Below, piece by piece: positions 8,865-50,820 of a DNA stretch of 64,000 nucleotides (positions are counted from its first letter, which is position 1; every line of letters begins with the position of its first letter). The stretch covers positions 1,361 to 65,360 of the forward strand of contig JAWCNV010000010.1 of assembly GCA_038848185.1 (NCBI GenBank), given 5' to 3'. The notes beneath the pieces were generated by a model, which was given only the letters and a program-made list of their open reading frames with translations, had not been told where the DNA came from and did no database searches. The stretch comes from Thermoproteota archaeon. Its GTDB lineage: Archaea > Thermoproteota > EX4484-205 > JAAOZP01. The position numbers and the translations under genes are program-made.

Positions 8865-8878
8865 GGGAGGCTGAAAGA

Positions 8879-9325: not shown

Positions 9326-9419
9326 GACTGTCTACTCAAAGTGAATTATTGCCCACCAGTGTCCTGCAAACATTGTATGAAAAACTATTTAATTAGCTTT
9401 TAAAGAGAACCAACGTAGC

Positions 9420-9773
9420 ATGGTTAACTACATTCAGGTTTTTACATGTACTGAAAAGAAGGAGGATGCTGAAAAGATTGCTAGAACACTGTTAGAGAGG
9501 AGACTGGCAGGTTGCATTCAGATAATTGGTCCAGTATCAAGCTTATACTGGTGGAAAGGGAAAATCGAGGAGGCTGAGGAATGGCTCTGCATAATAAAAA
9601 GTGAGAAAAGCCTTTACGAGGAGCTTGAGAAAACGATTAAGGAGAATCATCCGTATGCTGTTCCGGAAATAATAAGTATTCCAATCATTACTGGGAGTAA
9701 AGAATATCTTAATTGGCTTAGTGATATACTTTTAAGTCAAAATAAAGGAAGTGGTGAAGATAATAGCTATTGA
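9420..9773 (+). CDS. cutA: Divalent-cation tolerance protein CutA
   Basis: 117 aa; VFTCTEKKEDAEKIARTLLERRLAGCIQIIGPVSSLYWWKGKIEE...PYAVPEIISIPI matches the CutA1 family signature. Confidence 0.85.
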   Translation: MVNYIQVFTCTEKKEDAEKIARTLLERRLAGCIQIIGPVSSLYWWKGKIEEAEEWLCIIKSEKSLYEELEKTIKENHPYAVPEIISIPIITGSKEYLNWLSDILLSQNKGSGEDNSY

Positions 9774-9862
9774 AGAAACCATGTTAAGAAATATGCTGCT
9801 CCAAAAACATAATGGTGAAAGCAGCATCACATACTATAAGGCTCTTTCCATTTCTTTCTATT

Positions 9863-11056: not shown

Positions 11057-11360
11057 GGGTCAATATAAAGCTTTGACACAATAGTATAAAAACTTTATCT
11101 CGTCACTTAGCTAATTCACCATGTAACAGTGAAGGTTCTAACCGCTGGAGGAGGAAAAAGACATGATGATTGCTATAATGTCAGCAAACTAATTATTTTT
11201 GCAGGTGGGGCAATGGTATTTCAATGATATAGAGCATTTATCGCCTTCTATGAAGCTAATAACCACTGGACAGTTACCTGATGATTCTTTTCATGCTCCT
11301 TTTCTCCTGAAAGGTATCTGGAAGCGGGGGAAAGTATTTCAGGAAGTGTTTAACGAGTTA

Positions 11361-11371
11361 AGCTTATAAAC
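11361..11371 (+). promoter_or_regulatory. TATA box (CTTATAAA) for cassette A first gene
   Basis: TTATAAA centred about 30 nt upstream of ATG 11397, typical archaeal promoter spacing; an imperfect inverted repeat TTAACGAGTTAA lies immediately upstream (BRE-proximal). Confidence 0.45.
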
Positions 11372-11396
11372 CGCGTCTTATATCTAACCTTAAACA

Positions 11397-14300
11397 ATGC
11401 GCCACATATCGTTTACCGGTCTCAGGACCCCCCTGATACTTTCACTATTGGTCTTGATGCTTTTAACGCAGCTGACTTTCGTAACAGGATCCGTATCTTC
11501 GAGCAAAAGTAGTCCAGTCCAAATAAGCGATATTGGTAGTTTGAGCTTTGAAAACATCTTGGGGCATGTTGAAACCCTATCAGGATTCGGTTCCCGTGTT
11601 GTCGGTTACGATGGTTTCTTTGAGGCTGCTGACTATATTAAAGCATACTGGTCCTCTTTAGGCTTTGAGGTACGTGAAGAGAAATTTGACATGGTGACGC
11701 CTATCGTTGAAGACTGCTCTATAAAAGTAGAGACGGGTGATGGAACCATATTAGAGTTTGAGGCTTATCCACTTTGGCCTAATCACGTAAATCCTTGTCC
11801 CTACACAAGTCCTGAAGAGGGAGACAGGCTCATATACGTTGAAGGAGGGATTCCGGAAGATTTTGACGGCTCAAACCCGAAGGAAGCATTCGTCCTAATG
11901 GAATTTAATAATCGTTGGTATTGGAAGAACGCTGCTCTATTCGGTGCAAAAGGCATAATATTTCTTGAACCGGAAGAAACTACCGGTATCCAAGCTATTC
12001 AAAAAGTGTTCAGTATTCCAATAAACTTCCCTCGCCTATATGTAAGAGGCCAAACCGCCTCATATCTGAAGAATCTTGTAAAGCAAAGAGGAGAAGTCAA
12101 GATATGGGTAAACTCCAAGATGAAATGGGAACAGAAGAAAGTATCCAACATAATCGCAGTCATAGAGGGTTCTAACCCTGATACGAGAGACAAAGTGGCT
12201 GTCATAGGTGCTTACTATGATTCCTGGTCGATTGTGCCACAGCTTTCACCAGGTGCCACAGACTCCATAGGGATATCTTTCCTGTTAGAGCTTGGCAGGC
12301 TTTTAAAGGATACTCCTCCGGAAAGAACTGTCTGGCTAGTAGCTTTCGCAGGGCATTATCAAGGTTTGGCAGGTGGCAGGGAATTCATGGAGAAACATTT
12401 TGACGAGTTAGCTAGTAAACTTGAGATGATGTTAAGCGTTGACTTGGCGAGTGAGAGCGATATTTTAGCTGTTTACGCAACCGGTTCAATGTATGGGTAC
12501 TTGCAGCCACAGACGCTTTTAGCCAGATACAGTAGGTGGTTAGGTGATATCTTTTCAAAGTGGAAACCTGCTATTGAGAGTGCTATGGGTGAGGAGTATC
12601 ATGTGATAAACGGGGTCACTTGGTCAGACCCGAATTGGATAAGAAGTTCTCGCCCCTTCGAGCCTTTTCCAATATACTTCGAAGCCGAGATTTTCACCGA
12701 AGCCTGTTACGGTGGTGGTTTAGGTTTCGTTACAACGAACACCTTCAAAATATACCAGTATACGCCGTTAGACACAGTCGACAAGTTGATTCAAGATAAT
12801 ATTAGGAAACAAGTAAGCTTCCTGTGGCCAATACTGTACAATTGCGTTAACATGGAGGTAACTTACTTCCTTGCTCCAAAAAGGATAGCAACTGACTGGG
12901 GGTTAATCACTCTAACGATTCAGCTGGCTACGTATGATAAGATTACCGACTGGTTTAGAAGCTACTATCATGAGGATGCGATTTTTCTGGTTTCTGTTAG
13001 TGGGATTTCGTCTTCTCAGCAGCAAGTGGTTTACGCAGGTTTCTCAGCCCCCTCTTCAATAGGCTCTTTAAGAAGTGCTGTGGTACAGGGTGTGACAGTT
13101 GGACTGTTTGCCTCCTCTTCTGGTGTAAGCCAAGGGCAGGTTCAGCAGGGTTCGCTTGCAACCCCTCTTGGGTTCACCATGGTTGCTAAGCCTGATGCTC
13201 AAGGGCAGGTAGTTATTAAAGGAATAAGGCCTTTAACAGGTATTGACGTGCAAGCATACGTTATTGATCCGGAAACTGGAAAAATATTATGTGCAACAGA
13301 CACCGGGCCATTTGGAACCACCAAACTTAGGTATGGTGGTCTTTTCGGACAAGCCGCTGCAGCCGCAGCACCAACCCTTACCGCAGGTATGGAGGCACTA
13401 GTTTATCTCGCAGCATCAGGTGAGGGCGCTCGCTCTTTTAACCTCTTTGCCCCGCCATGGTGGCGATACGTTCCAATCATTAACGTTTCGTCGATCGCGA
13501 TATTAGGGCTTATTGATCCAGTTAACATTAAGGATGCGGCAGGACTGACACTAGAGGTCTACAACTTCATTTCTCACAGCTACCTTATTTGGAGAGATAC
13601 TCTTTCACCATGGCCAGAAACCATGGCTTTCATTCAACCAGATGTTCCTGTCGAAATCTTGATAAAAAGCGGAGGACGAATAGTGGCTATTTTAAACAAT
13701 GCCTCCAGCAAGTATCCTGAGGGTCAAGGCTACCTGCTTAAGCATGGTGAGACAAAAATCTTAACGATGTTTGATGCTGTAGATAGTGTGTTTTATCTTG
13801 CTCAGGCTAGAGCCGGCTTTTTGATGGAAAGAATGTCAGCAAATCCGAAGCTTGTACTCCATCTTGAGAAGATGAACAGTTTCAGAAAAGCCTCGGAAGA
13901 AGATCTGCAGAATGGGAAACTAGGTGAGTTCTACTCCCTATCTATTGCCTGCTGGCAATATGCGTTGCATGCTTACCTTTCTTCCTTCGAGCTAACATAT
14001 GACGTTGTTAATACAGCGTCTTTCTTCTTCTTCCTATCGGCCGCCTTCATAATTCTGGTTGCTAGGTTAATCGCAAGAAGAGAAGCCGGGGTAAAGCGTA
14101 TGATGTATATAATCGCTTTATTCTTAGTGGTAAATGTGCTTTTAGGATTAATTCATCCTGGTTACGCTATTTCATCAAATATCTGGATGCTTATAAATGG
14201 GTTGGCCATAATCCTGTTCTCAATCCTCTTGGTTTACGTTGTGATAGATGAGTTTAATGATGCTGTGAAAAGCATAAGCCAATCAATCCTTGGCTATCAT

Positions 14301-16055
14301 AAATCTGACATTGAGAGAAACAGCTTCATATTCTCCGCTTTCTCCATCGGTGTGGAAAACCTCAAAAAGAGGTATATTAGAACTGCTTTAACATTATCGA
14401 CCATCATAATAACCGTCCTTGCAATGACCATGTTCACAACTATGGGTTTAGTCGTTACGTCATATAAGACAGAGTTAGGCACGATGCCTGCTTACACAGG
14501 TTTCCTCATAAAGAAACCATTGCCTGACATCATTAATGTTCCCCTATCCGAGCTTTATATGATGGGAATAAATGATATTGCGTCACAAGGGCTCGGAGAA
14601 TTCCAAGCTTGCCCAAGAACTTGGATATATCCTCCGGGCATGAAGATGTTTGTAACATGGGCTAATGCGACGAAGTCAAGCATTAGGGCAATATTAGGAA
14701 TCACTCCAGAGGAGGCTAAATTATTAGAGCCTGCGCTTTCCTCTGGCACTACTTTCATGGAAGGTGCGGAGCGAGTAGCTTTGGTTAGTAGCGGTCTCGC
14801 CAGCCAGCTGAGTGAAGACCTTGGTATAGAGGTTAAGGTTGGTACTTCGATTAGTATTTACGGTATGCCTGTCACAGTCGTAGGGATCCTAGACGATGAG
14901 TTAAGCAAATCTGTTTTCAAAGACTTGGATGGTGGCGATTTTGTGCCCCTCAACCCAACCTCCTCACTTACGAGCGGAGCGCCGGTTTACCTCGATGTTA
15001 AAGAGGTACTAATTGTTCCCTATGATTTTGCAAGAAATGTCTTCAACGCTCAGCCTAACATCATCGTTTTACACTCCGGCACATCTATTAAAACTGAGGA
15101 TTTGGGTCAGCGTGCTTATGACTTGGCTTTGATACTACCCTTTGACATCTTCTTCGGCTCAATGCAGCATGAGTCCTCAGGCAAGGTTGCAACCAGAGAT
15201 GTATACTTAATCAGTGGAACTGAAAACATGCTGGTGCCTTTAACAATCTCTGCCTTAACGATTTTATCAATGATGCTGAGTGCAGTTTACGAAAGAACAA
15301 AGGAGATTACGACGCTTAGTACTCTAGGGCTTTCGCCACGCCACATCGGGTCAATCTTCCTAATAGAGTCAATAGCACTGGCTTTTATCGGCAGCTTCAT
15401 CGGCTATATAACGGGGGCAGGAGTAATGACTCTCTTATGGAGGCTGAACATGTTTCCCAAAGAATTGATTCCGAATGTGTCTTCAGGAGTAATAATTATA
15501 GTCATGGGTGTGATAATATTAGTTACGGTACTATCATCTGTTTACCCAATAGTTAGAGCCTCAAAACTAGCAACCCCGTCGTTACTGAGAAAGTGGCAGA
15601 TCGGAAGCAAACCGGTTGAAGACAGGTGGAGCGTAGCTTTACCCTTCAACGCTACTACCTCAGAGACGCTAGGGGTCTTAGAGTTTCTAGCTGAGTATTT
15701 TGAGGCTTCGTCTTCCACAAGCGGGAGGGCAGGACTCTTCATCCTCCTTAAGCCTGCAGAAATAATACAGGAGGATAATAGAAAAATCTTGAAAGTGCAG
15801 TTACAACTATCACCATTTGACGCTGGAATAATTCAAAATCTTGAAGTAGTTTGCCAGAGGATTGGTACCGATAGATATGGCTTCGGAATCCTGATAAATA
15901 GACTATTGGGCACGGAAAACCTTTGGGTTACGGCCAACAAGAACCTTCTCAGCGAACTTCGTAAACAGTTCCTATTCTGGAGGGCTCTTGGCGTAAGTGA
16001 TAAGGCAAAGTATATAGAGCGAGGGGAACGGAGGCAGAGCACTAGTAAGGAGTGA
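11397..16055 (+). CDS. Giant membrane protein: signal peptide, PA domain, degenerate M28-peptidase-like ectodomain, 3 TM, MacB/FtsX-type permease unit, conserved non-ATPase cytoplasmic C-terminal domain (cassette A, 'L' subunit)
   Basis: 1552 aa. Signal MRHISFTGLRTPLILSLLVLMLL. PA-like GDRLIYVEGG...AALFGAKGIIFLEPEE. M28-like VAVIGAYYDSWS...PGATDSIGISFLLELGR with metal ligands substituted (H to Y; DD to TD; EE to GH). MacB-type TM1 LKKRYIRTALTLSTIIITVLAMTMFT (around 14360-14460). FtsX core AVYERTKEITTLSTLGLSPRHIGSIFLIESIALAFIGSFIGY (around 15280-15400). About 170-aa C-terminal tail, no Walker A. Confidence 0.7.
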   Translation: MRHISFTGLRTPLILSLLVLMLLTQLTFVTGSVSSSKSSPVQISDIGSLSFENILGHVETLSGFGSRVVGYDGFFEAADYIKAYWSSLGFEVREEKFDMVTPIVEDCSIKVETGDGTILEFEAYPLWPNHVNPCPYTSPEEGDRLIYVEGGIPEDFDGSNPKEAFVLMEFNNRWYWKNAALFGAKGIIFLEPEETTGIQAIQKVFSIPINFPRLYVRGQTASYLKNLVKQRGEVKIWVNSKMKWEQKKVSNIIAVIEGSNPDTRDKVAVIGAYYDSWSIVPQLSPGATDSIGISFLLELGRLLKDTPPERTVWLVAFAGHYQGLAGGREFMEKHFDELASKLEMMLSVDLASESDILAVYATGSMYGYLQPQTLLARYSRWLGDIFSKWKPAIESAMGEEYHVINGVTWSDPNWIRSSRPFEPFPIYFEAEIFTEACYGGGLGFVTTNTFKIYQYTPLDTVDKLIQDNIRKQVSFLWPILYNCVNMEVTYFLAPKRIATDWGLITLTIQLATYDKITDWFRSYYHEDAIFLVSVSGISSSQQQVVYAGFSAPSSIGSLRSAVVQGVTVGLFASSSGVSQGQVQQGSLATPLGFTMVAKPDAQGQVVIKGIRPLTGIDVQAYVIDPETGKILCATDTGPFGTTKLRYGGLFGQAAAAAAPTLTAGMEALVYLAASGEGARSFNLFAPPWWRYVPIINVSSIAILGLIDPVNIKDAAGLTLEVYNFISHSYLIWRDTLSPWPETMAFIQPDVPVEILIKSGGRIVAILNNASSKYPEGQGYLLKHGETKILTMFDAVDSVFYLAQARAGFLMERMSANPKLVLHLEKMNSFRKASEEDLQNGKLGEFYSLSIACWQYALHAYLSSFELTYDVVNTASFFFFLSAAFIILVARLIARREAGVKRMMYIIALFLVVNVLLGLIHPGYAISSNIWMLINGLAIILFSILLVYVVIDEFNDAVKSISQSILGYHKSDIERNSFIFSAFSIGVENLKKRYIRTALTLSTIIITVLAMTMFTTMGLVVTSYKTELGTMPAYTGFLIKKPLPDIINVPLSELYMMGINDIASQGLGEFQACPRTWIYPPGMKMFVTWANATKSSIRAILGITPEEAKLLEPALSSGTTFMEGAERVALVSSGLASQLSEDLGIEVKVGTSISIYGMPVTVVGILDDELSKSVFKDLDGGDFVPLNPTSSLTSGAPVYLDVKEVLIVPYDFARNVFNAQPNIIVLHSGTSIKTEDLGQRAYDLALILPFDIFFGSMQHESSGKVATRDVYLISGTENMLVPLTISALTILSMMLSAVYERTKEITTLSTLGLSPRHIGSIFLIESIALAFIGSFIGYITGAGVMTLLWRLNMFPKELIPNVSSGVIIIVMGVIILVTVLSSVYPIVRASKLATPSLLRKWQIGSKPVEDRWSVALPFNATTSETLGVLEFLAEYFEASSSTSGRAGLFILLKPAEIIQEDNRKILKVQLQLSPFDAGIIQNLEVVCQRIGTDRYGFGILINRLLGTENLWVTANKNLLSELRKQFLFWRALGVSDKAKYIERGERRQSTSKE

Positions 16056-16061
16056 TAAGGA

Positions 16062-17942
16062 ATGGAAGAAGTCAAGCAGAAGGGGCTTACATGGAGGGCT
16101 GTTCTAGCAATCATATTCGTAGTGTTCGTCATAGAGCCAGCGATAGTTTACAACTGGCTGGTCAGTGGTCTTTGGGGGCTACCTCTTCAAAGCTGGGCAG
16201 TCATATTGCTATGGATTGGCTTGGCAAGGCTTCTAGGCTCCTCATTAAGCTCCAAGGAGATTTTTGTCATAAGAATGGTGGAGACAACAGGTCTAATGTT
16301 CACCGGCTACTACTTTGCATACTTACTGCGTAACCAGTATTTCGCAAATTCTGAAATAGCAGCACTGTTTGGCATGCAGGATCAAATACCCCCGTTCTTC
16401 TCGCCTCTTGGAGAGTTCGCCCAGAGATCCATGCTACAAAGGACATTTTTCGACTTTGCTTGGGCTCTGCCCATACTGGTCTCCGTTGTTATACCTGTAG
16501 TGCTCGTCGCAGTCGCCAATTATGTGCTTGGTCTGCTTGCCTTCAGACTCTACGTGCAGGAGGAGAAGCTGGAGTTTCCACTAGCCTCATGGGACGCTAG
16601 GACGATGAAAGCCTTCGGTGAAAGAGACAAAAGCCTGATCAAATATATTGCTCTCTCCATAATGGGTGGATTCCTTTACTCTGTAATGAGCCAAGGGCTC
16701 ACTACCATACTGGGGGTACCCCTGTTTCCACGCTATACCATAGATCTAACCAACATAGTTGAGACTATGCTTCCGGGGGCCTCGTTCTCCTTCAGCCTAG
16801 ATTTGTTATCTTATATAACTGGCTTCATCCTACCGATTCAATTTACAGCTGCGCAATTCATATCTTCAGTTGCACTATCTATTTTCGGAAACTATTACGT
16901 GACAGTTAACGATTTATGGCCTGCTGAGAGCAAATGGCAGGCTGGCCAAGGTTATCTCTGGATCTACCAGAGGTCTTCACTCTACTTCTGGAATAGCTTC
17001 ACAATAGGGTGGGGCATAGCAATGGCTGTAATTCCACTCTTGATAAGGTATAAGTCAGTCGTCAGAGCATTTACAAGAGTTGGTAGTGGTCTCGGAAAAA
17101 CGGAGAAAGGCAGTAGACTGCTTTCCAGCAAATTCCTTATTCTTATATACTTGGCTACTGCAGGAGCATCCATACTCATCACGAAGATTCTCATACCTGA
17201 CTTTCCTCTATGGGTCCTCGTGCTCTTCACGCTAGGAATCTCGTTTGTGATGACTCTGCTACAAACACACTCTGCAGGGATCACCGCCGGGTTTAGCGTC
17301 CCCTATCTTAGGGAAACCATGATATACTTTAGCGGTTACGATAGGATTGACATATGGTTCGCACCACCTGACATGATGCTTTTCCTCGGAGGATCAGGTA
17401 TAGCTCAACAGCTTAAGCAAGCATCTATGCTGGGCGTGGAAATAGAGGAGTATACTAAAGCGTATTTCCTAATGGTCTTCCTTGGGCTCTTGGGAAGCTT
17501 TATATTCGTTTCTCTCTTCTGGAGCCTCAGCCCTATACCCGGGTGGGCATACCCCTACACGATTTCAGCATGGCCTGTGGAAGCATTGAACTTCTGGAGG
17601 TGGCAAACCTGGCTCTGGTCTGGTTATCTCTTTAGAAGAGAAATGATGTTAACAGGTATTGGTGTCTCTACTGTGCTCTACCTGATATCGGACCTTGTTT
17701 TCCACATGCCTTCTTTCCCGATTGCAATGATGTCCGGAATGCTGATGGTTCCAAACATAGCTCTATCACAATTCCTGGGTTCCGTAATATCTGTAGGCAT
17801 AAGCAGGTTTTTAGGTAAGAAACTATGGGATGAAAACAAAGGGTTCTTTGTGATAGGTTTATCACTCGGAGACGGTCTCTTTTCCACAATTTTAAGGGTC
17901 CTAACATTGATAGGCAGGTCAGTATGGCTTAAGCCCTACTAA
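16062..17942 (+). CDS. Polytopic Trp-rich membrane protein, subfamily P1 (cassette A)
   Basis: 626 aa, 12 or more hydrophobic segments; homolog of 41143-43107 (GLTWRAVLAIIFVVFVIEPAIVYNWLVSG vs GLTWKTVLAIIFSSFIIQPAVIYLYLVSG); contains EKLEFPLAS motif; starts 7 nt after the upstream stop. Confidence 0.65.
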   Translation: MEEVKQKGLTWRAVLAIIFVVFVIEPAIVYNWLVSGLWGLPLQSWAVILLWIGLARLLGSSLSSKEIFVIRMVETTGLMFTGYYFAYLLRNQYFANSEIAALFGMQDQIPPFFSPLGEFAQRSMLQRTFFDFAWALPILVSVVIPVVLVAVANYVLGLLAFRLYVQEEKLEFPLASWDARTMKAFGERDKSLIKYIALSIMGGFLYSVMSQGLTTILGVPLFPRYTIDLTNIVETMLPGASFSFSLDLLSYITGFILPIQFTAAQFISSVALSIFGNYYVTVNDLWPAESKWQAGQGYLWIYQRSSLYFWNSFTIGWGIAMAVIPLLIRYKSVVRAFTRVGSGLGKTEKGSRLLSSKFLILIYLATAGASILITKILIPDFPLWVLVLFTLGISFVMTLLQTHSAGITAGFSVPYLRETMIYFSGYDRIDIWFAPPDMMLFLGGSGIAQQLKQASMLGVEIEEYTKAYFLMVFLGLLGSFIFVSLFWSLSPIPGWAYPYTISAWPVEALNFWRWQTWLWSGYLFRREMMLTGIGVSTVLYLISDLVFHMPSFPIAMMSGMLMVPNIALSQFLGSVISVGISRFLGKKLWDENKGFFVIGLSLGDGLFSTILRVLTLIGRSVWLKPY

Positions 17943-17955
17943 AACAGGCATCTGA

Positions 17956-17990
17956 ATATTTTTTTCCTAGTTTTTGATTATTGTTTTCAT
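17956..17990 (+). terminator. T-tract terminator candidate (ATATTTTTTTCC...TTTTTGATTATTGTTTTC)
   Basis: T7 run beginning 16 nt after the stop of the 626-aa gene; archaeal terminators are oligo-T tracts. Confidence 0.4.
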
Positions 17991-18003
17991 TATATGCTAG
18001 TAA

Positions 18004-18014
18004 AACTTATATAC
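18004..18014 (+). promoter_or_regulatory. TATA-like element (ACTTATATACT) for the 683-aa gene
   Basis: Centred about 34 nt upstream of ATG 18044. Confidence 0.35.
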
Positions 18015-18043
18015 TTCCAAACATCCTATTAGACGATGGTAAA

Positions 18044-20032
18044 ATGGCTGAAGAAGTTAAAAGTGCTTTAACACCCAAAATGTGGATATTCCTAATAGCG
18101 CTCTCGGTTTTGATGAGCCTTATCGGAGTATCGGCAGCGCCTTTCGCACCCTCATGGGCTTGGTCAACAGTCATGGGTTCTTTCACAGGTCCGATCGTAG
18201 TTCTGTTCATACTACTACTACTCTCTAAGGCTCTTAAGCTGCAGGGTTTAGGTCTTCAGAAGCTTGGTCTAGTATACACGGTATCATCAATATCCCTAAT
18301 CTTCTGCTGGAGCATGATTCCCTATGGTATACTCCACAACTCAGCAAACATGCGCATGGTAACATACGACCCATACACCACAGCACTTGCAGACCAGTTT
18401 GTTTTCGGACCGCGTGCAGAGGTAGCTTCCCAAATCCAGACGGGTGGCGCACTACACCTCGTAGGCGAATGGGCCCCCTGGATGGGATGGTGGTCAGCTT
18501 ACGCCATACTGTGGCTGGTGTTCTGGGTCGGATGGCTAGCATTGCTCCACGAGAGATGGATAGAGGTGGAGAAGCTACCTTTCCCGGCTGCTCTAACTGG
18601 AACACTGCAGATACAGCTGATAGCTGGTCCTGAAAAGGACGGCCGGCTCAAATACTTCCTAGTGGGTGTTGCGATAGGCGCATTAGTCATATTGCCGATA
18701 GTAGTACATGCACTCTACCCCGCCTTCCCCGACATATATGGTTGGACGGCTGACCCATATCTTCCATGGTGGATGGGCACGCTGAACCTTGCCGGAGTGC
18801 CTGCCGCATCAGCAATCCCTGTTATGAGCTTCCTTCCAGTGAACCCGATGGCTTACGCACTTTTCCTACTGTTCCCAACGAAAATACTCTTCTCAATATG
18901 GATATTCAGTCTACTAGGCGTGATCATACCGGCACAGATAGCGTGGTACATGGGCTACTACTCTGGAATACAAACGGCTGGTTGGAGAGCTGACTACCTG
19001 CTGTACCAAGAGCCGTTCAAGTATGGTGGCATATGGGTAGGCGCATTCGTAGGACTAGCCTTAATCTGGTTCGTTCTTAACGTACCCTACATGAAGAGCC
19101 TGTTCTCAAAATCTGTCGACGTCAGTAAAAAGGCTATTGCCCCCATGATGGGATGGATTATGATAATAGTGTCCACCATAGGGCTAATCGCTCTACTAAT
19201 CGTAGCAGGTGCTAATCCACTCGGCTCAATACTGATAGTTGTATCCATGTGGCTACTCTACATGGGTACGATGAGAGTATACGGCTTCGGCAGCATCGCT
19301 GGCTCAGCTTGGACCTCGCCCATAGACTGGCGTCAATTCCCGTGGATTACGAAGTATGTTTGGCACCCGGGAATGACGGCGGAGATGCTTAGCGCTAACC
19401 CGGCACTGGCCAAAGAATACTGTACGACCATGATGCTTACCAACAGGTTCACCGGAGAAATGATGGGTGAGATCAACACTCAATTCGGAATGTTATTCGC
19501 CATGCCGCTGTGCTACAAGGTTGGATACGATACTGGGACACATCCAAGAGACATAACTATGCTGATGCTGGTTTCAGGCATAATCTCAGCTGTGATAGGT
19601 TTCACACTATCTGTCGTGTTCGACTACGCTGCAGGGACAGCTAACACTCCCATGGGCATGTACGACGCTTGGTGGATATGGGTCTTTGCAGTACCAGGAA
19701 CCGTTGAGACCATACCTACAAGCGAACCTTTCTGGCCGTACCTATTAGCCGGTATCATCCTTTCTGCAGTACTGAGCTTCCTCAACTTCCGCTTCGCATG
19801 GTGGCCACTGGATCCTGCGGGTGTATGCGTTGCCCTTGGAGCAGGACCCGGAGGATGGATGCTTCCTGCGTTAGTCGGGTGGATCATTAAGACTGTGGCT
19901 GTGAGAATGGGTGGCTCTAAGCTTCACGACAACGTCATCATACCTATCGCCGTAGGGGTACTGGTTGGCTACTGGTTCCTCTGGTTCCTAGGGTCAATCA
20001 TAGGGCTCATAAAGTTCTTCATCCCTGCATAA
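18044..20032 (+). CDS. Polytopic Trp-rich membrane protein, subfamily P2 (cassette A)
   Basis: Start moved to MAEEVKSALTPKMW (ATG 18044) by homology to MAEEAAEVPS start of paralog 36020-37993. The ORF-track TTG at 17981 lies within the terminator/promoter region. Contains EKLPFPAAL motif; C-terminal GGSKLHDNVIIPIAVGVLVGYWFLWFLGSIIGLIKFFIP conserved with paralog. Confidence 0.65.
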   Translation: MAEEVKSALTPKMWIFLIALSVLMSLIGVSAAPFAPSWAWSTVMGSFTGPIVVLFILLLLSKALKLQGLGLQKLGLVYTVSSISLIFCWSMIPYGILHNSANMRMVTYDPYTTALADQFVFGPRAEVASQIQTGGALHLVGEWAPWMGWWSAYAILWLVFWVGWLALLHERWIEVEKLPFPAALTGTLQIQLIAGPEKDGRLKYFLVGVAIGALVILPIVVHALYPAFPDIYGWTADPYLPWWMGTLNLAGVPAASAIPVMSFLPVNPMAYALFLLFPTKILFSIWIFSLLGVIIPAQIAWYMGYYSGIQTAGWRADYLLYQEPFKYGGIWVGAFVGLALIWFVLNVPYMKSLFSKSVDVSKKAIAPMMGWIMIIVSTIGLIALLIVAGANPLGSILIVVSMWLLYMGTMRVYGFGSIAGSAWTSPIDWRQFPWITKYVWHPGMTAEMLSANPALAKEYCTTMMLTNRFTGEMMGEINTQFGMLFAMPLCYKVGYDTGTHPRDITMLMLVSGIISAVIGFTLSVVFDYAAGTANTPMGMYDAWWIWVFAVPGTVETIPTSEPFWPYLLAGIILSAVLSFLNFRFAWWPLDPAGVCVALGAGPGGWMLPALVGWIIKTVAVRMGGSKLHDNVIIPIAVGVLVGYWFLWFLGSIIGLIKFFIPA

Positions 20033-20177: not shown

Positions 20178-21635
20178 ATGAAAAACTCGTTTAACCACGT
20201 GAAAGGCTTTCTCCTTGCAATCATACTCATAATGTCTCTGAACATTCTGCTTCTAACGCCTCAGACCGAATACGTTTACTATGGTGTTATTCCAGAAAGA
20301 ATCTATGATTATGACCCCATCCAAGAAACAGACTTATCAAAAGGCTGGAGACTAGTACAGGCGACCGTAGCCACGCAAGGCTACATCTCTATCCTTGCTT
20401 CGCAGGACGGTACTCAGGTGAGAGTCTACACTCTTCCAGGAAAGGAGCTTGTCTCAGAATTCTCACTTAACTCTATGGAGAAGCGTTACGTTCCTCTTCC
20501 GAACGGAACCATGTTCAAGGTTGTTTCGAACAAGCTGGTTTCAGTCCTGCTAATATCTCCACCACCCAGAGGAATCCCGGGAGTTAACGCTACGGAGGGA
20601 CCTATTACAACAGGCTTCTACCTTTCTGTTGAGGGAGCATACGTTGGCAAGGAGTTCGTGATAGAGACTTCACAGGGGCTCTTAGGGCTTCTCCACACCA
20701 TATTTGCCGTGGAGGATGCTGAGGTAACGTTGACCGCTGAAGACGGAACTACACAAACCTTCAAGCTTAAGGCAAACACGTACAGAGAGTTGCAGCCTAA
20801 GCCTCTGAAAGCCTACAGGATAACCTCAACCGGAAACATAATGATTCAAGGCGGTTATATGGATGTTACAGGAACCAATATGCCGAGAAGCTTCTTCATA
20901 CCTTCAGCCGAAGGCGGCTTCGTAGGCAGAAGATTCTACTCCGGTGCCAGTGACACATCCGATGAAGGAATTTTACAGGAGGAAAACTGGTTCGTCATAT
21001 CTGCCTTGGAGGACGCTAAGGTCACAGTCTGGGACCTCTATAACCAGAAGGCTGCTACAGAGATCACTGTTAAGGCTGGGGAGCAGGCTTACGTTAAATG
21101 GGTCGAGATTAAAGTGTTTGAGGAAATAGCATTTGACAGTGATAAGCCGATAACTGTTCAGTTCCTCCACAGCGGCAGCATTAAAAGAGGCTATGGTATA
21201 GCCACTGGTGCAGGCTTCACCTACATGTGTATTAGGCCTAACGAGGATACTCCGTTCGTCCTACCGACAAACTCCACCATCTACGCATACCTCTTCACCA
21301 GTGAGGACGCTAACATCGTGGTCGACGACGTACCAATGACCCTCAGGCCAGACGAGCCCTGGATACTATCCACCCCGGGGCCTCACACAGTCAGGTCGAA
21401 CAAGAACCTGGTTCTCCTCCTGCTGCACTACCCGCTAATACCTCCAAACCAAGGCATAAACGGCTTCGGTGTTCCGGTACCGTGCGTTCAAACAGTTAGC
21501 GTAACTCCAAGCGTCACCCTGCGCCCACTGGGAGGAGAGGGGGCAGCAATCCCGACAAACTACATAATCATAATAGTGGTGGTAGTGGTCATAGTCGTGG
21601 TCGTCGCCGTCTTAATGAGAAGAAGAAAGAAGTAA
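20178..21635 (+). CDS. Secreted beta-rich protein with C-terminal TM anchor (…IIIIVVVVVIVVVVAVLMRRRKK), cassette A-specific
   Basis: 485 aa; N-terminal signal/TM MKNSFNHVKGFLLAIILIMSLNILLL; C-terminal poly-I/V helix plus RRRKK; no recognisable catalytic motifs. Confidence 0.6.
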   Translation: MKNSFNHVKGFLLAIILIMSLNILLLTPQTEYVYYGVIPERIYDYDPIQETDLSKGWRLVQATVATQGYISILASQDGTQVRVYTLPGKELVSEFSLNSMEKRYVPLPNGTMFKVVSNKLVSVLLISPPPRGIPGVNATEGPITTGFYLSVEGAYVGKEFVIETSQGLLGLLHTIFAVEDAEVTLTAEDGTTQTFKLKANTYRELQPKPLKAYRITSTGNIMIQGGYMDVTGTNMPRSFFIPSAEGGFVGRRFYSGASDTSDEGILQEENWFVISALEDAKVTVWDLYNQKAATEITVKAGEQAYVKWVEIKVFEEIAFDSDKPITVQFLHSGSIKRGYGIATGAGFTYMCIRPNEDTPFVLPTNSTIYAYLFTSEDANIVVDDVPMTLRPDEPWILSTPGPHTVRSNKNLVLLLLHYPLIPPNQGINGFGVPVPCVQTVSVTPSVTLRPLGGEGAAIPTNYIIIIVVVVVIVVVVAVLMRRRKK

Positions 21636-21715: not shown

Positions 21716-24700
21716 ATGGGGCTTTCCTTCATGCCGGTAAAAGCGAGGATACTTATGCTGGTTTATCTGCTTATTATTCTTTTTGCACTTTTCTCCATGA
21801 AAGTGAACGCTACTCCCGATAGCCTGATAGAAGTCTACGGCAGAGTTCTTAATGCTATGGATGGAAGCCCGGTTGAAGGAGCCACTGTTCTCATCCGGGA
21901 TGTTTCAGACCCGTCGATAAACCCTGTTCCGGGAGCAGGAATTTATATCACGGATGAGAAGGGGTCTTACGTGGCAGCTTCCCCTTATATTCGGATTGGT
22001 CACTACTATAGGATTTATGCTTTCAGAGGGGAGCTTCCACAGGGGCCTTTTGACTATGTTCCATCTAAACCCTTAACGTTAAAAATTGAAGAGGGTAAGA
22101 GTTTAAACATTTCTTTCAGGCTGGTTCCCGCTGCCTGCCTTATACTTGAAGGGGACATAATGTATGTTGAGGCCACTGGAACTGCCTTCAGGACCTCGGT
22201 AAGTATTGTTGACCCGTATACGGGAAGCCCGCCAGAAGTGTATGGTGCAGATTATGTTTCAACCTATTGGGCTTCTTCAGACTCTTGGTTCCTAGGCTTA
22301 GCTGAGAGGGTTGTTGTAATACCTGCCAATAAGAAGGTTTACTTAAGGGCAGACTCTTGGTTTCGAGTTGGAACCTACCTAAAGGCTTTCTCCTTCCTCA
22401 TTGATAATAATGGAGAAGGTTTCTCACTGCCTCAAGGTGGCATGCAAAATGTCAGTATCTGGGAGTACCCTTTAAGGAGAAGTTTAGAAATGGTGAGGGA
22501 TGTGCATTCAGAGGTTCTGCAGAAAACCGAGGATTTCTCTAGGTCTGGTTTCATAGTGTTTGATGAGCGGCAACGGCTTGAAGCTGCACGCCAAAAGTAT
22601 TTAGAGTCTCAAGGCCTAATTTATAGTAATCCTAGGGAAAGCTGGTATTCCATGAGAGAGGCTTATACGGAGATTTTGGCGGTTGATAATACTTTGAACT
22701 TCATGAAGTTCGCAGTAGCCACGGAAGCAGTAAGGCTTCCTATTTTTCTATCGGTTATGGCGGTTACGCTGGGCTTCTTTTCTTTTGAAGAAATTAGGAG
22801 AAAATTCTTATCCACATTAATATTTTATCTACTGCTCATATTTTTAATATTCCTGATATATCCTGGTGTTAGTACTTTCAGTAATGAGGATGTTAGAAAC
22901 TTCGTGATCTCGTCACTCATATCAATCTCAATTACTCTGGTTATTGTTTTCTTAATACCGAGGGTTTGGAGAGAACCCAGGGTTGAGGGGGAGGTTTCTC
23001 TTAGAAGTGTATTGAGCATCATTTTTTCAATGTCGAAGAGACAGGTGAGGAAAAGAAGGCTTAGAAGTATTTTCACTTTCCTGAGTCTCTGTATAATGGT
23101 TATGACATTTACTGCACTAACTTCCTTTGGAACAGTTTATGGGCTTAAGTATGAGACCACACCATTTACTAGTTCTAAAAGCGGGTTCCTAGTAAGGATG
23201 AGCAATATGGGTAATCTAACTTTCACCCCTATATCACCATCCGATCTTTCAGTTTTGAATGAAACGAATGAGTTATCTTATATTTCACCTAAGGTGGAAA
23301 GCTTAGGAGACGATCAGGCACTTGGAGAGTTGCTGTCGAGCTCGGGGCACCTCTTAAAGTTTTACGGGATCCTTGGAATAGACTTTAGCAATGAATGGAG
23401 ATATGTTGATGTAACGAATGCAATAACCGGAGACCTGCCTGCAGGGGGTAGTTCTGAAGAGATTGTAGTAAGCTCGCCAATGGCTGATGCATTAGGCATA
23501 AGTATTGGCGATTATGTAAATATATATGTGCGTGGAATAAATGAGCCGATAGAAACCGCTAAAGTTGTCGGTATCTTCAGCGAGTCAACTATAGGGTCAC
23601 TCACAGATCTCGGAGGTGGTAACTACCTGCCCCTGAGGTTTCTTAAGGTTGATGATAGGGTGACGGCTCGGCCATGTAATGCGAGCGACATATTTCTTAT
23701 GGATTGGAGAGGACTGCTCAGCTTGCAGTCTAAAGTGGAGTCTTTGCAACCTAGCGGTACACTTCAACTAGCAGCTATTTCAAGGGTGGCTTTCTCACTT
23801 AGGGAAGATGTGGATGTCGATCTTTCAAAACTAGTTAGACGGTTGACTTTTGTCTTCGGTTATGTTGTGAATATTGTGGGGCAAAACCAGGTTGAAACAT
23901 ACTCTCTAGGGTATTTCTACGAGACTAAGGGTATTGGCGAGATGATAATACCGATCATAATGGTCATGCTTAATACCGGTTCCATAATGCTCAATGTAGT
24001 GTATGAAAGACATAGGGAGATGAAGACTCTGACACTCTTAGGACTGAATCCTGTCCATATCGGATTGATTTTTGTGGCTGAAGCAATCATAATTGGTCTA
24101 ATAGGCGGGGGAATTGGATACGTTGTTGGATTAGGCTTCCAAAGGGTTATAGTTCTTTTTGGACAAGACCTTATGGTGAAGTCTAAAATAGAATGGTGGT
24201 GGAGCTTCATAGGTCTAGCGCTTTCTCTGTTGGTGTCTGTGCTTTCTTCTTGGAGAGCGGCGGCAGTAGCCGTCAAGATATATACCCCCTCAATGGTCAG
24301 GAAAGTTAAGACAGGCAAAGAGGAGAAGAAAATTAGGGAAGAAGAAATATTCAGGATTTTCCAGGGTAGAGAAGTTTCTATGCCTATAAGACTGCATCCT
24401 GTCGAGGTCGACTTCTTCACTGGATATGTGATTACGCGTCTTTCAGAGATGAAGTTTGGGTTTGCTGATCGGGTGGAGGACTTGGAAGAGATGAAGCCCC
24501 AACAGTTTAAGGATGGAAGCGTCCATAAGGGAGTCCACTTTAAGTACTTAAACATGATAAAGGGTCAGCTTCTCGGAACCAAAAACAGGGTCCTCTGCAT
24601 ACAGGATCCTGGGAAAGACTTTTTCAGAGTTTCTCTCGTGTATGAGCCAACTGTGCCAGGGATTCCTGAAGCGGTGGTTAAAAGAGTGGTGGAAATAATC

Positions 24701-24760
24701 AAAGACATATGCTACTCGTGGGTTAAAGAAAAAGACAGGATAGTCGTAGGCTTCAAATAG
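21716..24760 (+). CDS. Large membrane protein: signal/TM, carboxypeptidase-regulatory-like ectodomain, 3 TM, MacB/FtsX-type permease unit, conserved non-ATPase cytoplasmic C-terminal domain (cassette A, 'M' subunit)
   Basis: 1014 aa. Ectodomain VYGRVLNAMDGSPVEGATVLIRD (CarbopepD_reg/prealbumin-like). MacB-type TM1 KRQVRKRRLRSIFTFLSLCIMVMTFTALTSFG (around 23040-23130). FtsX core VVYERHREMKTLTLLGLNPVHIGLIFVAEAIIIGLIGGGIGYVVGLGF (around 23995-24140). About 160-aa cytoplasmic tail homologous to the tail of 38108-41134, no Walker A. Confidence 0.7.
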   Translation: MGLSFMPVKARILMLVYLLIILFALFSMKVNATPDSLIEVYGRVLNAMDGSPVEGATVLIRDVSDPSINPVPGAGIYITDEKGSYVAASPYIRIGHYYRIYAFRGELPQGPFDYVPSKPLTLKIEEGKSLNISFRLVPAACLILEGDIMYVEATGTAFRTSVSIVDPYTGSPPEVYGADYVSTYWASSDSWFLGLAERVVVIPANKKVYLRADSWFRVGTYLKAFSFLIDNNGEGFSLPQGGMQNVSIWEYPLRRSLEMVRDVHSEVLQKTEDFSRSGFIVFDERQRLEAARQKYLESQGLIYSNPRESWYSMREAYTEILAVDNTLNFMKFAVATEAVRLPIFLSVMAVTLGFFSFEEIRRKFLSTLIFYLLLIFLIFLIYPGVSTFSNEDVRNFVISSLISISITLVIVFLIPRVWREPRVEGEVSLRSVLSIIFSMSKRQVRKRRLRSIFTFLSLCIMVMTFTALTSFGTVYGLKYETTPFTSSKSGFLVRMSNMGNLTFTPISPSDLSVLNETNELSYISPKVESLGDDQALGELLSSSGHLLKFYGILGIDFSNEWRYVDVTNAITGDLPAGGSSEEIVVSSPMADALGISIGDYVNIYVRGINEPIETAKVVGIFSESTIGSLTDLGGGNYLPLRFLKVDDRVTARPCNASDIFLMDWRGLLSLQSKVESLQPSGTLQLAAISRVAFSLREDVDVDLSKLVRRLTFVFGYVVNIVGQNQVETYSLGYFYETKGIGEMIIPIIMVMLNTGSIMLNVVYERHREMKTLTLLGLNPVHIGLIFVAEAIIIGLIGGGIGYVVGLGFQRVIVLFGQDLMVKSKIEWWWSFIGLALSLLVSVLSSWRAAAVAVKIYTPSMVRKVKTGKEEKKIREEEIFRIFQGREVSMPIRLHPVEVDFFTGYVITRLSEMKFGFADRVEDLEEMKPQQFKDGSVHKGVHFKYLNMIKGQLLGTKNRVLCIQDPGKDFFRVSLVYEPTVPGIPEAVVKRVVEIIKDICYSWVKEKDRIVVGFK

Positions 24761-35388: not shown

Positions 35389-36060
35389 CTAACCTGTAGG
35401 ACGCTTAGCTACTGATTCAATAGCCTTCTTGCCTAGTGAAATGATGATCCTCCATACTTCTAGCCAAGCGGCTAGTAATGTAAATATGAGGCCAATCCCA
35501 GATATGAAAATGCCTAGACTCCATTGTGATTTTAGGAAACTGCTATCATAAGATGTTTCGCTTGATGGTGGCGGAAGCCCGCTGAAGACTGTTATCCGCG
35601 TCCAGCCTTGGACGAAGACACCTAAACATATCATCATCAGCGTCGTCCCAATGGTTAAGCCCAAGGCTCTTTTCGTCCAGGTTTTTGCTAAAGCACTAAT
35701 GATAATTATTATAATGGCAATGGGCTGTAGAGTAAGAACACTAGATGTAGGCGGTTTATCCCATCGCCCAGAAAAGACGAGTTTCAGAGTGGTCTCATCA
35801 TACTGTTGCCATAGAGGGTAGACTTTCCACTGCACCTCTCTACCATCTAAGTTACCGTTTAACTCGTACCAAGGAAGGAATAAGCTTACTGTGAGCAGTG
35901 CTCCGGCGATAAGCCCCAGACTGTTTCTACCGCCTTCCAATGGGTCGGGTCGACGCTGACTGTTTATAAAACTAACTCTTAAGCATGATGCATAGAGAAA
36001 AAGAAATAGGGTTTTCCTCTTAGAATGGGAAGAAGAATCTGATGATGCCGAGTACAGCAC
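35389..36060 (-). CDS. Small multi-TM membrane protein, cassette B-specific
   Basis: ORF-track GTG start at 36060 overlaps the upstream gene by 41 nt; an in-frame TTG at 35940 (…PDP-L-EGGRNSLGLIAGALLTVSLFLPWY) would give a 183-aa, non-overlapping protein with about 4 TM. Start uncertain. Confidence 0.45.
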   Translation of the reverse strand: MLYSASSDSSSHSKRKTLFLFLYASCLRVSFINSQRRPDPLEGGRNSLGLIAGALLTVSLFLPWYELNGNLDGREVQWKVYPLWQQYDETTLKLVFSGRWDKPPTSSVLTLQPIAIIIIIISALAKTWTKRALGLTIGTTLMMICLGVFVQGWTRITVFSGLPPPSSETSYDSSFLKSQWSLGIFISGIGLIFTLLAAWLEVWRIIISLGKKAIESVAKRPTG

Positions 36061-37993
36061 TGAGGAATAGCGCTAGGTTCCAGCCAACCATTATTCCAAC
36101 TGCAAGTGGAAGCCCCTTGTTCTCCCAGAGCGGGACTCCGCCTACTCTGAATGTTATCTTCTTGAGTACGTATGCGATCGTCCAGCTTGTTAGCATGAAG
36201 GTGTTGACTCCTGCCACACCGGCCCATACTCCTATGGGGTCGAGTGGGAACTTGAACCATAGCATTCTTGCTAAGTATATGACAACTATTACTATTCCGC
36301 CAGCTATAGCTGACCAGACCCAATTCCAGTCGGGCGACGGGTACTGCTGCATCCTAGTGGGATCATGGAGCATGTACATCCACCATCCATCCGTAGTTAG
36401 GCTCCTGTAGAGTTTTGATCCAAACATGTGTCTGAGCTGGAGTGCGAGTGGGAATGAGACTATTGCGGAGACCACCATTGAAATGGTCATTGCTATAGCT
36501 ATATCGCGGAGGTTCGTGCCAGTAGCCTTTGCTATTCTGAATGTAATCATGACGTCAGAGTTATTTGTCCAGTTGAGAACGTTCTGGGGTCTATTTATCA
36601 TAAGGTAGTCATTCACCATAGGTGCCGTAACCTTGCTTGCAGTTACACCCGTATACATCCAGTTGATCCAGCCTGGAGACTCCATCCAGTCGCCGAGCCA
36701 TGGGCCTCCGTAACCAGCGCTTCGCGCACGTACGCTCCCATGAAGGAAATGCACGAAAATTATCATGCCTGCCCCTAGGAGGCTGGTTGCACCTATTTCG
36801 ACATTTGCAACAAATAGGAGCACTATTGCCACAAAAAATATGATGCAGCTGAACCTGAAGGGTATCGGTTCTTGAGCATCCACCTTAGGGTCAGGTTTAC
36901 GAGCCCACTTTAATGTTTGAACAAGGTAACGCCAGTTTAAGACAATCCATGTCAATATTATTGCGGTAACCATGCCGTATGATGCCATGGCATAGAAGTA
37001 GAATGGTGCTCCCTGTCCCAGCACATCTCGCTTGGTAGTTACCTCCGAGACTGTTAAGGCAGTCGAGTAGTAGCCAAAGTAATAAGCTATCTGAGGAAGG
37101 ACGATCATGAATACTATGTTAGAGATAATTCCTGAGAGCAGTATATCCGTAGGTATCAGGTAGGCGAAAGCTATTGCTGAAGGATTGAACTGTAAGCCGT
37201 TCAGACCTACCAGCGTCTCCTTAAGTGGCGTTTTAGTAGTATCTATAGTGAAGAGAGCCCAAGATATCCAGGGGTCCTTTCCCAAACCATATATGTCTGG
37301 GAACCATGGGAACACATATTTCAAAGCCTGCGGCAGGAATATCAGAAAGCCTATTATACCGCCTATCAAGAGAAGTAGCCTCCTTCCCTTCCTTTCCTCA
37401 GCCTTTGAAAGGTCCATAATAAGTTCAGTGCCCGTGTATGAGGAAGGATATGGAAGCGCTTCCACATCCATCCATTGGCGCCTATAAATACTCATTAGAC
37501 TGAGCATGAAGACCCACCATAGTATTGAAAGCAGTATCCATCCTGAGAGCGCAGGCAGATATTCTCCCCACGGTACTTCAACTCCTCCTTTAAGCTGGAG
37601 ACGTGCAATATCCAATGTTGGACCCCAGAGCATTGAGAACCATTGCCTCCACTGGGGGTTGTATAATCTTGAAGTCAACATGTTATCAAGTATACCCATG
37701 GGGACATTTCCATAGGAGTACATGACCGTGACTGTGAATGTAGCCCAGAGTACTGTGAGAAGCTTCGCATTTATCTTCTTCAGCCTCGGGAGCCCCTCCC
37801 CCAGAAGTAGAAGTATACTTAGGATTATCAGGCCTATGTTTCCAGGGCTGAAAGTACTGCCTCCCACCCAGCTTGGGCTGAAAGCGGTCACCGTTATGCT
37901 GAATGCTGAGAGAATTGCTGCTATAATCGCTGTGATAACCATCATCAAAGGAGTCATTATTCTTGAGGGAACTTCAGCCGCTTCTTCGGCCAT
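36020..37993 (-). CDS. Polytopic Trp-rich membrane protein, subfamily P2 (cassette B)
   Basis: 657 aa; MAEEAAEVPS start; VEALPYPSSYTG motif; C-terminal GGVPLWENKGLPLAVGIMVGWNLALFLSAVLGIIRFFFPF homologous to 18044-20032. Confidence 0.65.
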   Translation of the reverse strand: MAEEAAEVPSRIMTPLMMVITAIIAAILSAFSITVTAFSPSWVGGSTFSPGNIGLIILSILLLLGEGLPRLKKINAKLLTVLWATFTVTVMYSYGNVPMGILDNMLTSRLYNPQWRQWFSMLWGPTLDIARLQLKGGVEVPWGEYLPALSGWILLSILWWVFMLSLMSIYRRQWMDVEALPYPSSYTGTELIMDLSKAEERKGRRLLLLIGGIIGFLIFLPQALKYVFPWFPDIYGLGKDPWISWALFTIDTTKTPLKETLVGLNGLQFNPSAIAFAYLIPTDILLSGIISNIVFMIVLPQIAYYFGYYSTALTVSEVTTKRDVLGQGAPFYFYAMASYGMVTAIILTWIVLNWRYLVQTLKWARKPDPKVDAQEPIPFRFSCIIFFVAIVLLFVANVEIGATSLLGAGMIIFVHFLHGSVRARSAGYGGPWLGDWMESPGWINWMYTGVTASKVTAPMVNDYLMINRPQNVLNWTNNSDVMITFRIAKATGTNLRDIAIAMTISMVVSAIVSFPLALQLRHMFGSKLYRSLTTDGWWMYMLHDPTRMQQYPSPDWNWVWSAIAGGIVIVVIYLARMLWFKFPLDPIGVWAGVAGVNTFMLTSWTIAYVLKKITFRVGGVPLWENKGLPLAVGIMVGWNLALFLSAVLGIIRFFFPF

Positions 37994-50814: not shown

Positions 50815-50820
50815 GACGCG

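Follow-up and report, generated by a model that had tools for sequence, protein, structure and literature searches.

How does a membrane protein of the FtsX/MacB fold operate when no ATP-binding cassette (ABC) ATPase is encoded beside it? This question is raised by a 64-kb stretch of DNA from a Thermoproteota archaeon (the window, meaning the whole stretch that was analysed, 64,000 nucleotides), in which the segment 14350-16055 supplies the codons for residues 985-1552 of a 1552-amino acid (aa) open reading frame, A1552 (11397-16055, + strand). The gene is also called by NCBI on contig JAWCLK010000009.1 of the metagenome-assembled genome (MAG) GCA_038850895.1. An earlier reading of the letters of this window, referred to here as the original prediction, described four large proteins as FtsX/MacB-type permease units without an ATPase. 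The present analysis shows that these four proteins are genuine FtsX/MacB-fold (type VII ABC-like) members of a large uncharacterised family, and that the A1552 type (A) and one or two polytopic proteins of the DUF6785/6784 type (B and C) make up a conserved module whose genes are translationally coupled.

Two paralogous cassettes in a glycoside hydrolase-rich island were identified in the window by a listing of open reading frames and Pfam scans. Cassette 1 lies on the + strand in the gene order A1552, B626, C683, D485 and E1014, and cassette 2 lies on the - strand and contains A1541, B654, E1008, C657 and F223. Pairwise alignment between the cassettes gave 31% identity for A/A', 37% for B/B', 28% for C/C' and 28% for E/E'. 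A can also be aligned with E across a block of three transmembrane (TM) helices and the FtsX unit. The features of the two cassettes are as follows.

11397..16055, + strand: A1552, giant FtsX-fold membrane protein (Pfam FtsX 4.2e-16, Peptidase_M28 1.6e-11, MacB_PCD 2e-9; TM map)
12045..12836, + strand: M28-like ectodomain core of A1552, aa ~217-480 (alignment to M28 peptidase 3iib; family columns)
14016..14246, + strand: extra 3-TM block of A1552, aa 874-950, before the FtsX unit (hydropathy; homologous block in E)
14388..15533, + strand: FtsX unit of A1552 (Pfam MacB_PCD aa 996-1186, FtsX aa 1282-1391; PDB matches LolF, LolC, YtrF)
15549..16052, + strand: cytoplasmic tail of A1552, aa 1385-1552, predicted helix-grip / TBP-like α+β domain, not an NTPase
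16062..17942, + strand: B626, polytopic, divergent DUF6785/6784-like (OPT-superfamily-like) paralogue (HHalign against the C family)
17981..20032, + strand: C683, DUF6785 + DUF6784 polytopic membrane protein, OPT-like (Pfam)
20178..21635, + strand: D485, extracellular β-propeller-like protein with N-terminal signal/TM and C-terminal TM anchor (TM map; family profile)
21716..24760, + strand: E1014, FtsX-fold protein of ~1000 aa (Pfam FtsX 7.2e-13; AlphaFold2; Foldseek)
43124..47749, - strand: A1541, cassette 2 paralogue of A1552, 31% identity (Pfam; pairwise alignment)
41143..43107, - strand: B654, cassette 2 paralogue of B626, 37% identity
38108..41134, - strand: E1008, cassette 2 paralogue of E1014, 28% identity (Pfam; pairwise alignment)
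36020..37993, - strand: C657, cassette 2 DUF6785/DUF6784 protein (Pfam DUF6785 1.1e-25)
35389..36060, - strand: F223, small 4-TM protein that ends cassette 2 (TM map)

The FtsX/MacB fold was confirmed in all four large proteins. Each matches Pfam FtsX above the gathering score (A1552, 4.2e-16; E1014, 7.2e-13; A1541, 2.5e-10; E1008, 7e-9). The MacB_PCD family is matched in Pfam by A1552 (2e-9) and falls below threshold in A1541, E1014 and E1008, and precomputed matches to it exist for many A and E homologues. Among solved structures, the closest PDB sequence matches of the FtsX unit are LolF, LolC, YtrF and Spr0695, and those of the ectodomain are M28 aminopeptidases. Structure prediction, which had been named beforehand as a test of the fold, agrees: a whole-protein AlphaFold2 model of E1014 is matched by Foldseek to LolE, LolC, MacB and HrtB, with E-values down to 5e-10. 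The mean predicted local distance difference test score (pLDDT) of this model is 73, with confident ectodomains and a confident tail but values below 50 in the TM core (aa 737-884). The motifs quoted in the original prediction are present and conserved across the family alignments, with ENMRKRxxRTxLTL located ahead of TM1 and VYERxREIxxxSxxGLSPxHI...GY in the FtsX core.

The hydropathy map also bore out the three extra TM helices and the large ectodomain described ahead of the FtsX unit. Both A and E are arranged as one TM helix, an ectodomain, three TM helices, one TM helix, the PCD, three TM helices and the tail, and the enrichment of lysine and arginine in the predicted inside loops places the N-terminus, the tail and the TM2-TM3 loop inside. 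In A1552 the N-terminal TM helix is followed by an ectodomain of ~840 aa that includes a degenerate M28 domain, the 3-TM block, the FtsX unit and the helix-grip tail. The FtsX unit itself comprises TM1 (aa 998-1022), the MacB-type PCD (aa 1023-1278) and TM2-4 with an ERxxEI coupling-helix motif (aa 1279-1379). E1014 contains an N-terminal TM helix, an ectodomain resembling immunoglobulin and CarboxypepD_reg domains, the 3-TM block, the FtsX unit and a tail at aa ~885-1010. HHalign relates the 3-TM block to the FtsX block with a probability of <1%, Pfam at E<=10 yields nothing relevant for it, and whole-length Foldseek matches to the tandem permease BceB are weak (probability 0.6-0.77). Only these weak Foldseek matches hint that the half composed of the N-terminal TM helix, the ectodomain and the three TM helices could be a second, degenerate FtsX unit.

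The absence of an ATPase from the cassettes held under every search that was applied to them. Neither the Walker A motif ([AG]xxxxGK[ST]) nor LSGGQ nor a Pfam ABC_tran match was found in the ten cassette proteins, and no MacB-type nucleotide-binding domain (NBD) or remnant of one was detected in the six frames of the 64-kb window (best tblastn E=0.57). The original prediction had stated that a cognate ABC ATPase gene just outside the window would overturn it; the ATPase encoded there (L001:8115-9053) belongs to the DrrA family (NCBIfam, 320.6 bits against a cutoff of 312.45), lies ~11 kb from A1552 and is co-operonic with the ABC-2 permease at 109-933 of the window. As a member of an operon with its own ABC-2 permease, and not of the kind that pairs with FtsX, it was rejected as the missing partner and does not overturn the prediction.

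The neighbourhoods compared were those of A in 39 genome loci and of E in 70 metagenome loci, together with several that had been gene-called. The loci for A were retrieved using 11 closer A sequences, and every open reading frame of a locus was classified by phmmer against the cassette proteins and two NBD probes. Co-occurrence was counted in well-flanked loci, which extend 3 kb or more beyond the gene on either side; there were 22 of these for A and 25 for E. A MacB-type NBD adjoins the gene in none of the 22 well-flanked A loci and in one of the 25 well-flanked E loci. ABC ATPases of any kind occur within 3 kb of A in 6/22 loci, all from one Bathyarchaeia clade, where they are parts of a complete DrrA+ABC-2 pair and, farther off, of a complete FecCD/binding-protein/ATPase importer. 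When 148 neighbour open reading frames were scanned with Pfam, ABC_tran was found five times, in the sampled loci of that clade. Four gene-called neighbourhoods, two of them bacterial, likewise contain no ABC_tran match. The DrrA-type ATPase and its ABC-2 partner lie 1.5-3 kb from A at L034:6611-8370 and at equivalent sites in L040, L041, L042, L043 and L046, with a TrmB regulator between A and the pair. Because these pairs are self-contained exporters, their recurrence near A is probably coincidental.

The conserved partner of A, which had been overlooked, is a DUF6785-like polytopic protein. More than 190 homologous clusters of A at 90% identity have been detected in Bathyarchaeia, Thermofilaceae, other Thermoproteota and Armatimonadota, and the family as a whole ranges over Thermoproteota (Bathyarchaeia, Thermofilaceae, Brockarchaeota) and Armatimonadota. 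Near A, B is present in 20/22 loci, C in 17/22, D in 7/22 and E (within 3 kb) in 2/22. In 27 of 28 loci, A and B either overlap or are at most 20 nt apart, and the Armatimonadota loci contain only C-A or A-B, without E. Near E, A was found in 8/25 loci, B in 4/25, C in 3/25 and a second E in 5/25. Clustering revealed no conserved neighbour of E, the best cluster being present in 7 of 46 loci, and E proteins that are 70-73% identical to one another occupy unrelated contexts. E is mostly a solitary gene, and A mostly occurs without E. Adjacent or closely spaced E1008-like and E1014-like genes have been identified in three loci (L074:3098-9731, L075:6538-12997 and L102:9893-18704), which suggests that in some genomes E pairs with E where it pairs at all.

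The proteins B and C are ~620-720 aa long and have a dozen or more hydropathy peaks. C683 and C657 match Pfam DUF6785 above the cutoff, and all 22 members of the C family match DUF6785/6784. B has no Pfam match, and HHalign relates the B family to the C family over the full length with 99.9% probability (E=3.7e-33). The OPT profile (PF03169) is matched by 2 of the 22 C-family members (best 2.2e-8) and by neither B nor C of the window itself; weak precomputed OPT matches exist for one B and one C homologue. A search of the C-family profile against PDB sequences found no solved relative, and no mention of DUF6785/6784 was found in the literature. DUF6785/6784 proteins without an FtsX partner are encoded at L051:10001-14450 and L052:251-7932 beside genes for a B12-binding corrinoid protein and a URO-D (MtaA-like) methyltransferase, and these stand-alone proteins may carry methylated substrates. 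A place beside catabolic genes is the usual one for substrate carriers, and from this position of the stand-alone relatives B and C are inferred to be secondary carriers. Among known proteins, C belongs to DUF6785/6784, which is distantly OPT-like, and B is its full-length homologue; pairing with an FtsX-fold protein is not known for OPT transporters.

The conserved, non-ATPase nature of the cytoplasmic tail was upheld. A model of the last 168 residues of A1552, built from a 67-sequence alignment, has a pLDDT of 90.2 and a predicted template modelling score of 0.84, and its elements follow the order β-α-β-β-β-β-β-α-α. The E1014 tail shows the same order in the AlphaFold2 model. Both tail types match structures of the Bet v1/SRPBCC type, the matches of the E tail being found inside the whole-protein Foldseek search of E1014, and neither tail type matches any Pfam family at E<=10. 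By HHalign the A and E tails are related weakly (probability 42%) through a motif that follows TM4, TPSxxRKW...LPF/MP...E. An exhaustive HMMER search with the A tail against 1.84 billion representatives returned 1,174 clusters at E<=1e-3, in which the domain always occupies the extreme C-terminus; the shorter matches are A-type gene calls truncated at the N-terminus, and the domain is therefore specific to this family. As modelled, the A tail is a confidently folded domain of predicted helix-grip type, without a P-loop and confined to this family. The A and E tails, which had been described as two families, share element order, Bet v1/SRPBCC matches and a weak N-terminal motif, and on the models they are best seen as one fold. 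Compared with SRPBCC domains (Bet v1, START, AHSA1) and KA1 domains, identity is only 5-10% with no Pfam match at E<=10, and the domain is here fused to the C-terminus of a membrane protein.

The ectodomain of A was examined against the M28 peptidases. Pfam Peptidase_M28 matches A1552 (1.6e-11) and A1541 (1.1e-12) partially, over the first half of the profile only, and M28-fold matches in the PDB include 3iib, 6hc6 and 2ek8, as well as the GCPII-like 4twe for A1552. The PA domain (PF02225) is matched by some A homologues (P0092, P0113). Relative to 3iib, HxDS is replaced by YYDS, EE by HY and YHHTPxDT by YQYTPLDT in A1552. The same replacements are seen in the columns of the A family, where the first zinc-ligand His is Y273 in 89/117 sequences, H320 is found in 112/117 and Q322 in 99/117; the catalytic/ligand Glu-Glu pair has become His-Tyr/Trp and the final His ligand is lost. 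Among the M28 metal and catalytic residues only the bridging Asp is kept (D289; D in 82/117, E in 25/117). From its residues, the M28 domain of the A family appears to be catalytically dead and resembles a binding module. Because the catalytic and metal residues have been replaced, A homologues are probably misnamed as “M28 family peptidase” in databases. Transferrin receptor and nicastrin likewise carry an M28-fold ectodomain with degenerate sites on a membrane protein, presumably for binding and by analogy only, whereas those proteins are single-pass, eukaryotic and without an FtsX unit. GCPII is an active relative of such non-catalytic ectodomains.

The closest known counterparts are type VII ABC permeases and the orphan permeases of ADOP. 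In common with the type VII systems (MacB, LolCDE, FtsEX, YbbAP, HrtBA, BceAB), the four proteins have a 4-TM FtsX unit in which a long TM1 is separated from TM2 by an extracytoplasmic core domain of the MacB type and the segment joining TM2 to TM3 carries the ERxxEI coupling-helix motif. They differ in lacking a fused or adjacent NBD, and hence one element of a complete type VII system, in the four TM helices and the second, very large ectodomain that are added ahead of the FtsX unit, in the predicted helix-grip domain of ~165 aa after TM4, and in that members of A are obligately linked to an OPT-like polytopic protein and not to an ATPase. ADOP (TIGR03434, “Acidobacterial duplicated orphan permease”) is a group of large FtsX-family proteins of unknown function, with essentially no member known to be encoded beside an ABC ATPase gene. 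It is the best NCBIfam match of A1552 (E=6.3e-10, 37.8 bits against a cutoff of 622.3), and the other three proteins score lower. The A loci likewise contain no adjacent ABC ATPase gene. ADOP has two PCD+FtsX repeats, whereas one FtsX unit is detectable here; the lineages here are Thermoproteota and Armatimonadota; and the M28 ectodomain, the DUF6785 partner and the helix-grip tail are not described for ADOP. By score and by architecture the proteins fall outside ADOP. Literature searches on orphan or duplicated FtsX permeases, and on Bathyarchaeota together with FtsX, M28 or OPT, returned nothing relevant, and the architecture was not found described. The novelty lies in a conserved architecture, which joins the 3-TM block and the FtsX unit to a dead M28 ectodomain and a predicted helix-grip tail, and in its partnership with a linked OPT-like protein.

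The glycan-related genes of the window encode GH4, GH3, GH5, GH42 and GH97 glycoside hydrolases, an N-acylglucosamine 2-epimerase, ThuA and DUF6786 proteins, and two proteins contain mannanase-type galactose-binding domains (Mann_GBD). No conventional sugar transporter or binding protein is encoded in the window, and B and C are its only polytopic proteins other than the small protein F223 and the ABC-2 permease at its edge. The explanation tentatively preferred here, which we hold to be slightly more likely wrong than right, is an ATPase-independent uptake device centred on a secondary transporter. B and C would be carriers driven by the proton motive force, and A (together with E where present) would be a membrane-embedded surface receptor or scaffold, whose dead M28/PA-type ectodomain and MacB-type domain would capture an oligomeric substrate and pass it to B/C. 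The substrate would probably be an oligosaccharide or a glycoconjugate, because the cassettes lie in a glycoside hydrolase island without any other solute carrier. Capture would probably be aided by D and by the further surface proteins that have a C-terminal anchor. The FtsX unit would have lost its dedicated ATPase coupling, and the helix-grip tail would stabilise or regulate this unit, possibly via a membrane lipid or a small hydrophobic ligand.

Several points weigh against such a device and favour its main rival, in which a LolD/MacB-type ATPase from another site in the genome would energise A and E as ordinary type VII ABC permeases. The substrate is predicted from gene context, the relationship of B/C to OPT is weak and their transport role is predicted. 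All characterised FtsX-fold proteins are coupled to an ATPase. The most conserved parts of both the A and the E families are the cytoplasmic segment ahead of TM1 and the ERxxEI coupling-helix region between TM2 and TM3, and in canonical systems the NBD docks on the latter region. Furthermore, locus L054 encodes an E-type protein that is 35% identical to E1014 over the full length including the tail, and 271 nt upstream of its gene, on the same strand, lies a gene for a true NBD of the LolD/MacB/MJ0796 type (265 aa). This ATPase contains the motifs GPSGSGKTT, FQTFNLIPVLTALENV, LSGGQQQRVAIARAL and ILADEPTGNLD; its best PDB matches are MJ0796 (2.4e-72), Spr0694, MacB, LolD, YbbA, YtrE and FtsE, and its best NCBIfam matches are LolD, MacB, DarD, DevA and FtsE. 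A DUF6785 gene comes after the E gene, giving the order NBD-E-DUF6785-X-Y, and no other permease is encoded close by; the FtsX fold and tail are thus compatible with a type VII NBD. The statement that FtsX permeases always work with an ATPase and that none exists here was therefore too strong on both sides, as orphan ADOP permeases had already been named and L054 has an NBD. L054 and the conserved pre-TM1 and coupling-helix segments keep the explanation by an ATPase encoded elsewhere fully alive, and we regard it as a real possibility, though more probably wrong than right. Such an ATPase may serve all four paralogues, in the way that ATPases of the MsiK/MsmX type energise many different sugar importers. 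In this model the helix-grip tail would have been added for regulation or for tethering to the membrane, and A would use ATP-driven mechanotransmission on a cell-surface substrate in concert with B/C. However, of about 47 E loci L054 is the only one with a linked NBD, relatives of its E protein at 70-73% identity lack an NBD and are found in unrelated contexts, and no synteny with its closest E relatives, by which the gain or loss of the NBD could be dated, was detected at all. The gap of 271 nt also differs from the tight coupling of A and B, and A spans two domains of life without ever having acquired NBD linkage. Judging from FtsEX, LolCDE, BceAB, HrtAB and MJ0796/0797, unlinked NBDs are unusual in type VII systems.

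The remaining explanations are less probable. An FtsX fold that operates without any ABC ATPase through physical coupling to an OPT-like carrier, with either the conformational cycle of B/C, powered by the proton motive force, driving the FtsX unit and its giant ectodomain or the capture of substrate by the ectodomain gating the carrier, is considered unlikely. If true, a “type VII ABC” membrane domain would here be energised by something other than an ABC ATPase, with the helix-grip tail replacing the NBD on the cytoplasmic face, and the system would be a new kind of archaeal glycan-uptake system. The LolCE-like heterodimer of the original prediction, with the 1550-aa and 1010-aa proteins as the obligate functional unit of each cassette, is quite improbable. 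Each cassette of the window does carry one A and one E, the 3-TM block, FtsX unit and tail fold are common to the two, and both occur on one contig in L012, L025, L029, L053, L056, L057, L059, L061, L063, L117 and L121. However, the scarcity of E near A (2/22, against 20 for B and 17 for C) and the predominance of solitary E genes (A within 3 kb in 8/25) leave an obligate heterodimer unsupported; the bacterial members lack E, tandem E-E' pairs exist, and MacB and FtsX are normally homodimers. Separate homo-oligomers of A and of E are more likely. It is very improbable that A is an active membrane-anchored M28 peptidase that trims extracellular peptides for uptake by an OPT-like peptide transporter. 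The significant Pfam Peptidase_M28 matches, the NCBI names of A homologues, the retained bridging Asp and the transport of oligopeptides by OPT members speak for this possibility, whereas the replaced His ligand and Glu-Glu pair, the lost last His ligand, the match to half of the profile and a gene context of carbohydrate rather than peptide catabolism speak against it.

To our knowledge, the FtsX/MacB fold has so far been described only in the membrane component of ATP-driven machines (LolCDE, FtsEX, MacB, BceAB). Here it occurs in more than 1,100 clusters (50% identity) from two domains of life, together with another kind of cytoplasmic domain and an obligate OPT-like partner but without a linked ATPase. 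Either the FtsX fold can be energised in more ways than thought, or shared trans-acting type VII ATPases have been overlooked. The cassettes are also the only candidate uptake system in a glycoside hydrolase island without conventional sugar transporters, and they provide the first functional context for DUF6785/DUF6784. The peptidase annotation in Bathyarchaeia and Thermoproteota MAGs can feed inferences of extracellular protein degradation by these archaea.

Other surface proteins accompany the cassettes. The D family profile matches 8-bladed propellers (Tako8, 1.4e-12) and WD40 proteins; D recurs near A and forms arrays of 3-4 tandem paralogues in some Bathyarchaeia (L012:2720-7282; L013:3-1058 and 7681-12131). 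The proteins p397 (9863-11056, -), p395 (32076-33263, +) and p558 (33529-35205, -) are paralogues with 25-33% identity that flank both cassettes, and each has an N-terminal signal/TM and a C-terminal TM anchor. A mannanase-type galactose-binding domain is shared by p558 and the product of a 1107-aa open reading frame (5171-8494). Genes similar to those of p395 and the 1107-aa protein are kept in the cassette 2 orthologue L117, where the surface-anchored Mann_GBD paralogues co-travel. F223 has no family match and is conserved in the same locus (13127-13678). The neighbours across loci are heterogeneous, with TrmB, xylose-isomerase-like TIM barrels, GFO/IDH/MocA, UxuA and PfkB proteins recurring.

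At L054 the genes between 8932 and 19499 encode, in order, the ATPase, the E-type FtsX protein, the DUF6785 protein, proteins of 589 aa and 637 aa, an ADP-ribosylglycohydrolase and a GH129 enzyme. In the window, a complete NurA-HerA-Mre11-Rad50 operon for DNA-end resection (47975-54073) adjoins cassette 2 divergently, and a gene for ribosomal protein L13e is located on the same contig. A DUF6786 protein is encoded at 57785-58813 beside the genes for ThuA, a class-II glutamine amidotransferase and GH97; DUF6786 is an uncharacterised family from the same Pfam batch as DUF6784/6785. The 1107-aa open reading frame (5171-8494, -) overlaps an RraA-like gene (8157-8864, +). The corresponding NCBI product has 927 aa, and the true start of this frame is therefore probably downstream, near 7954.

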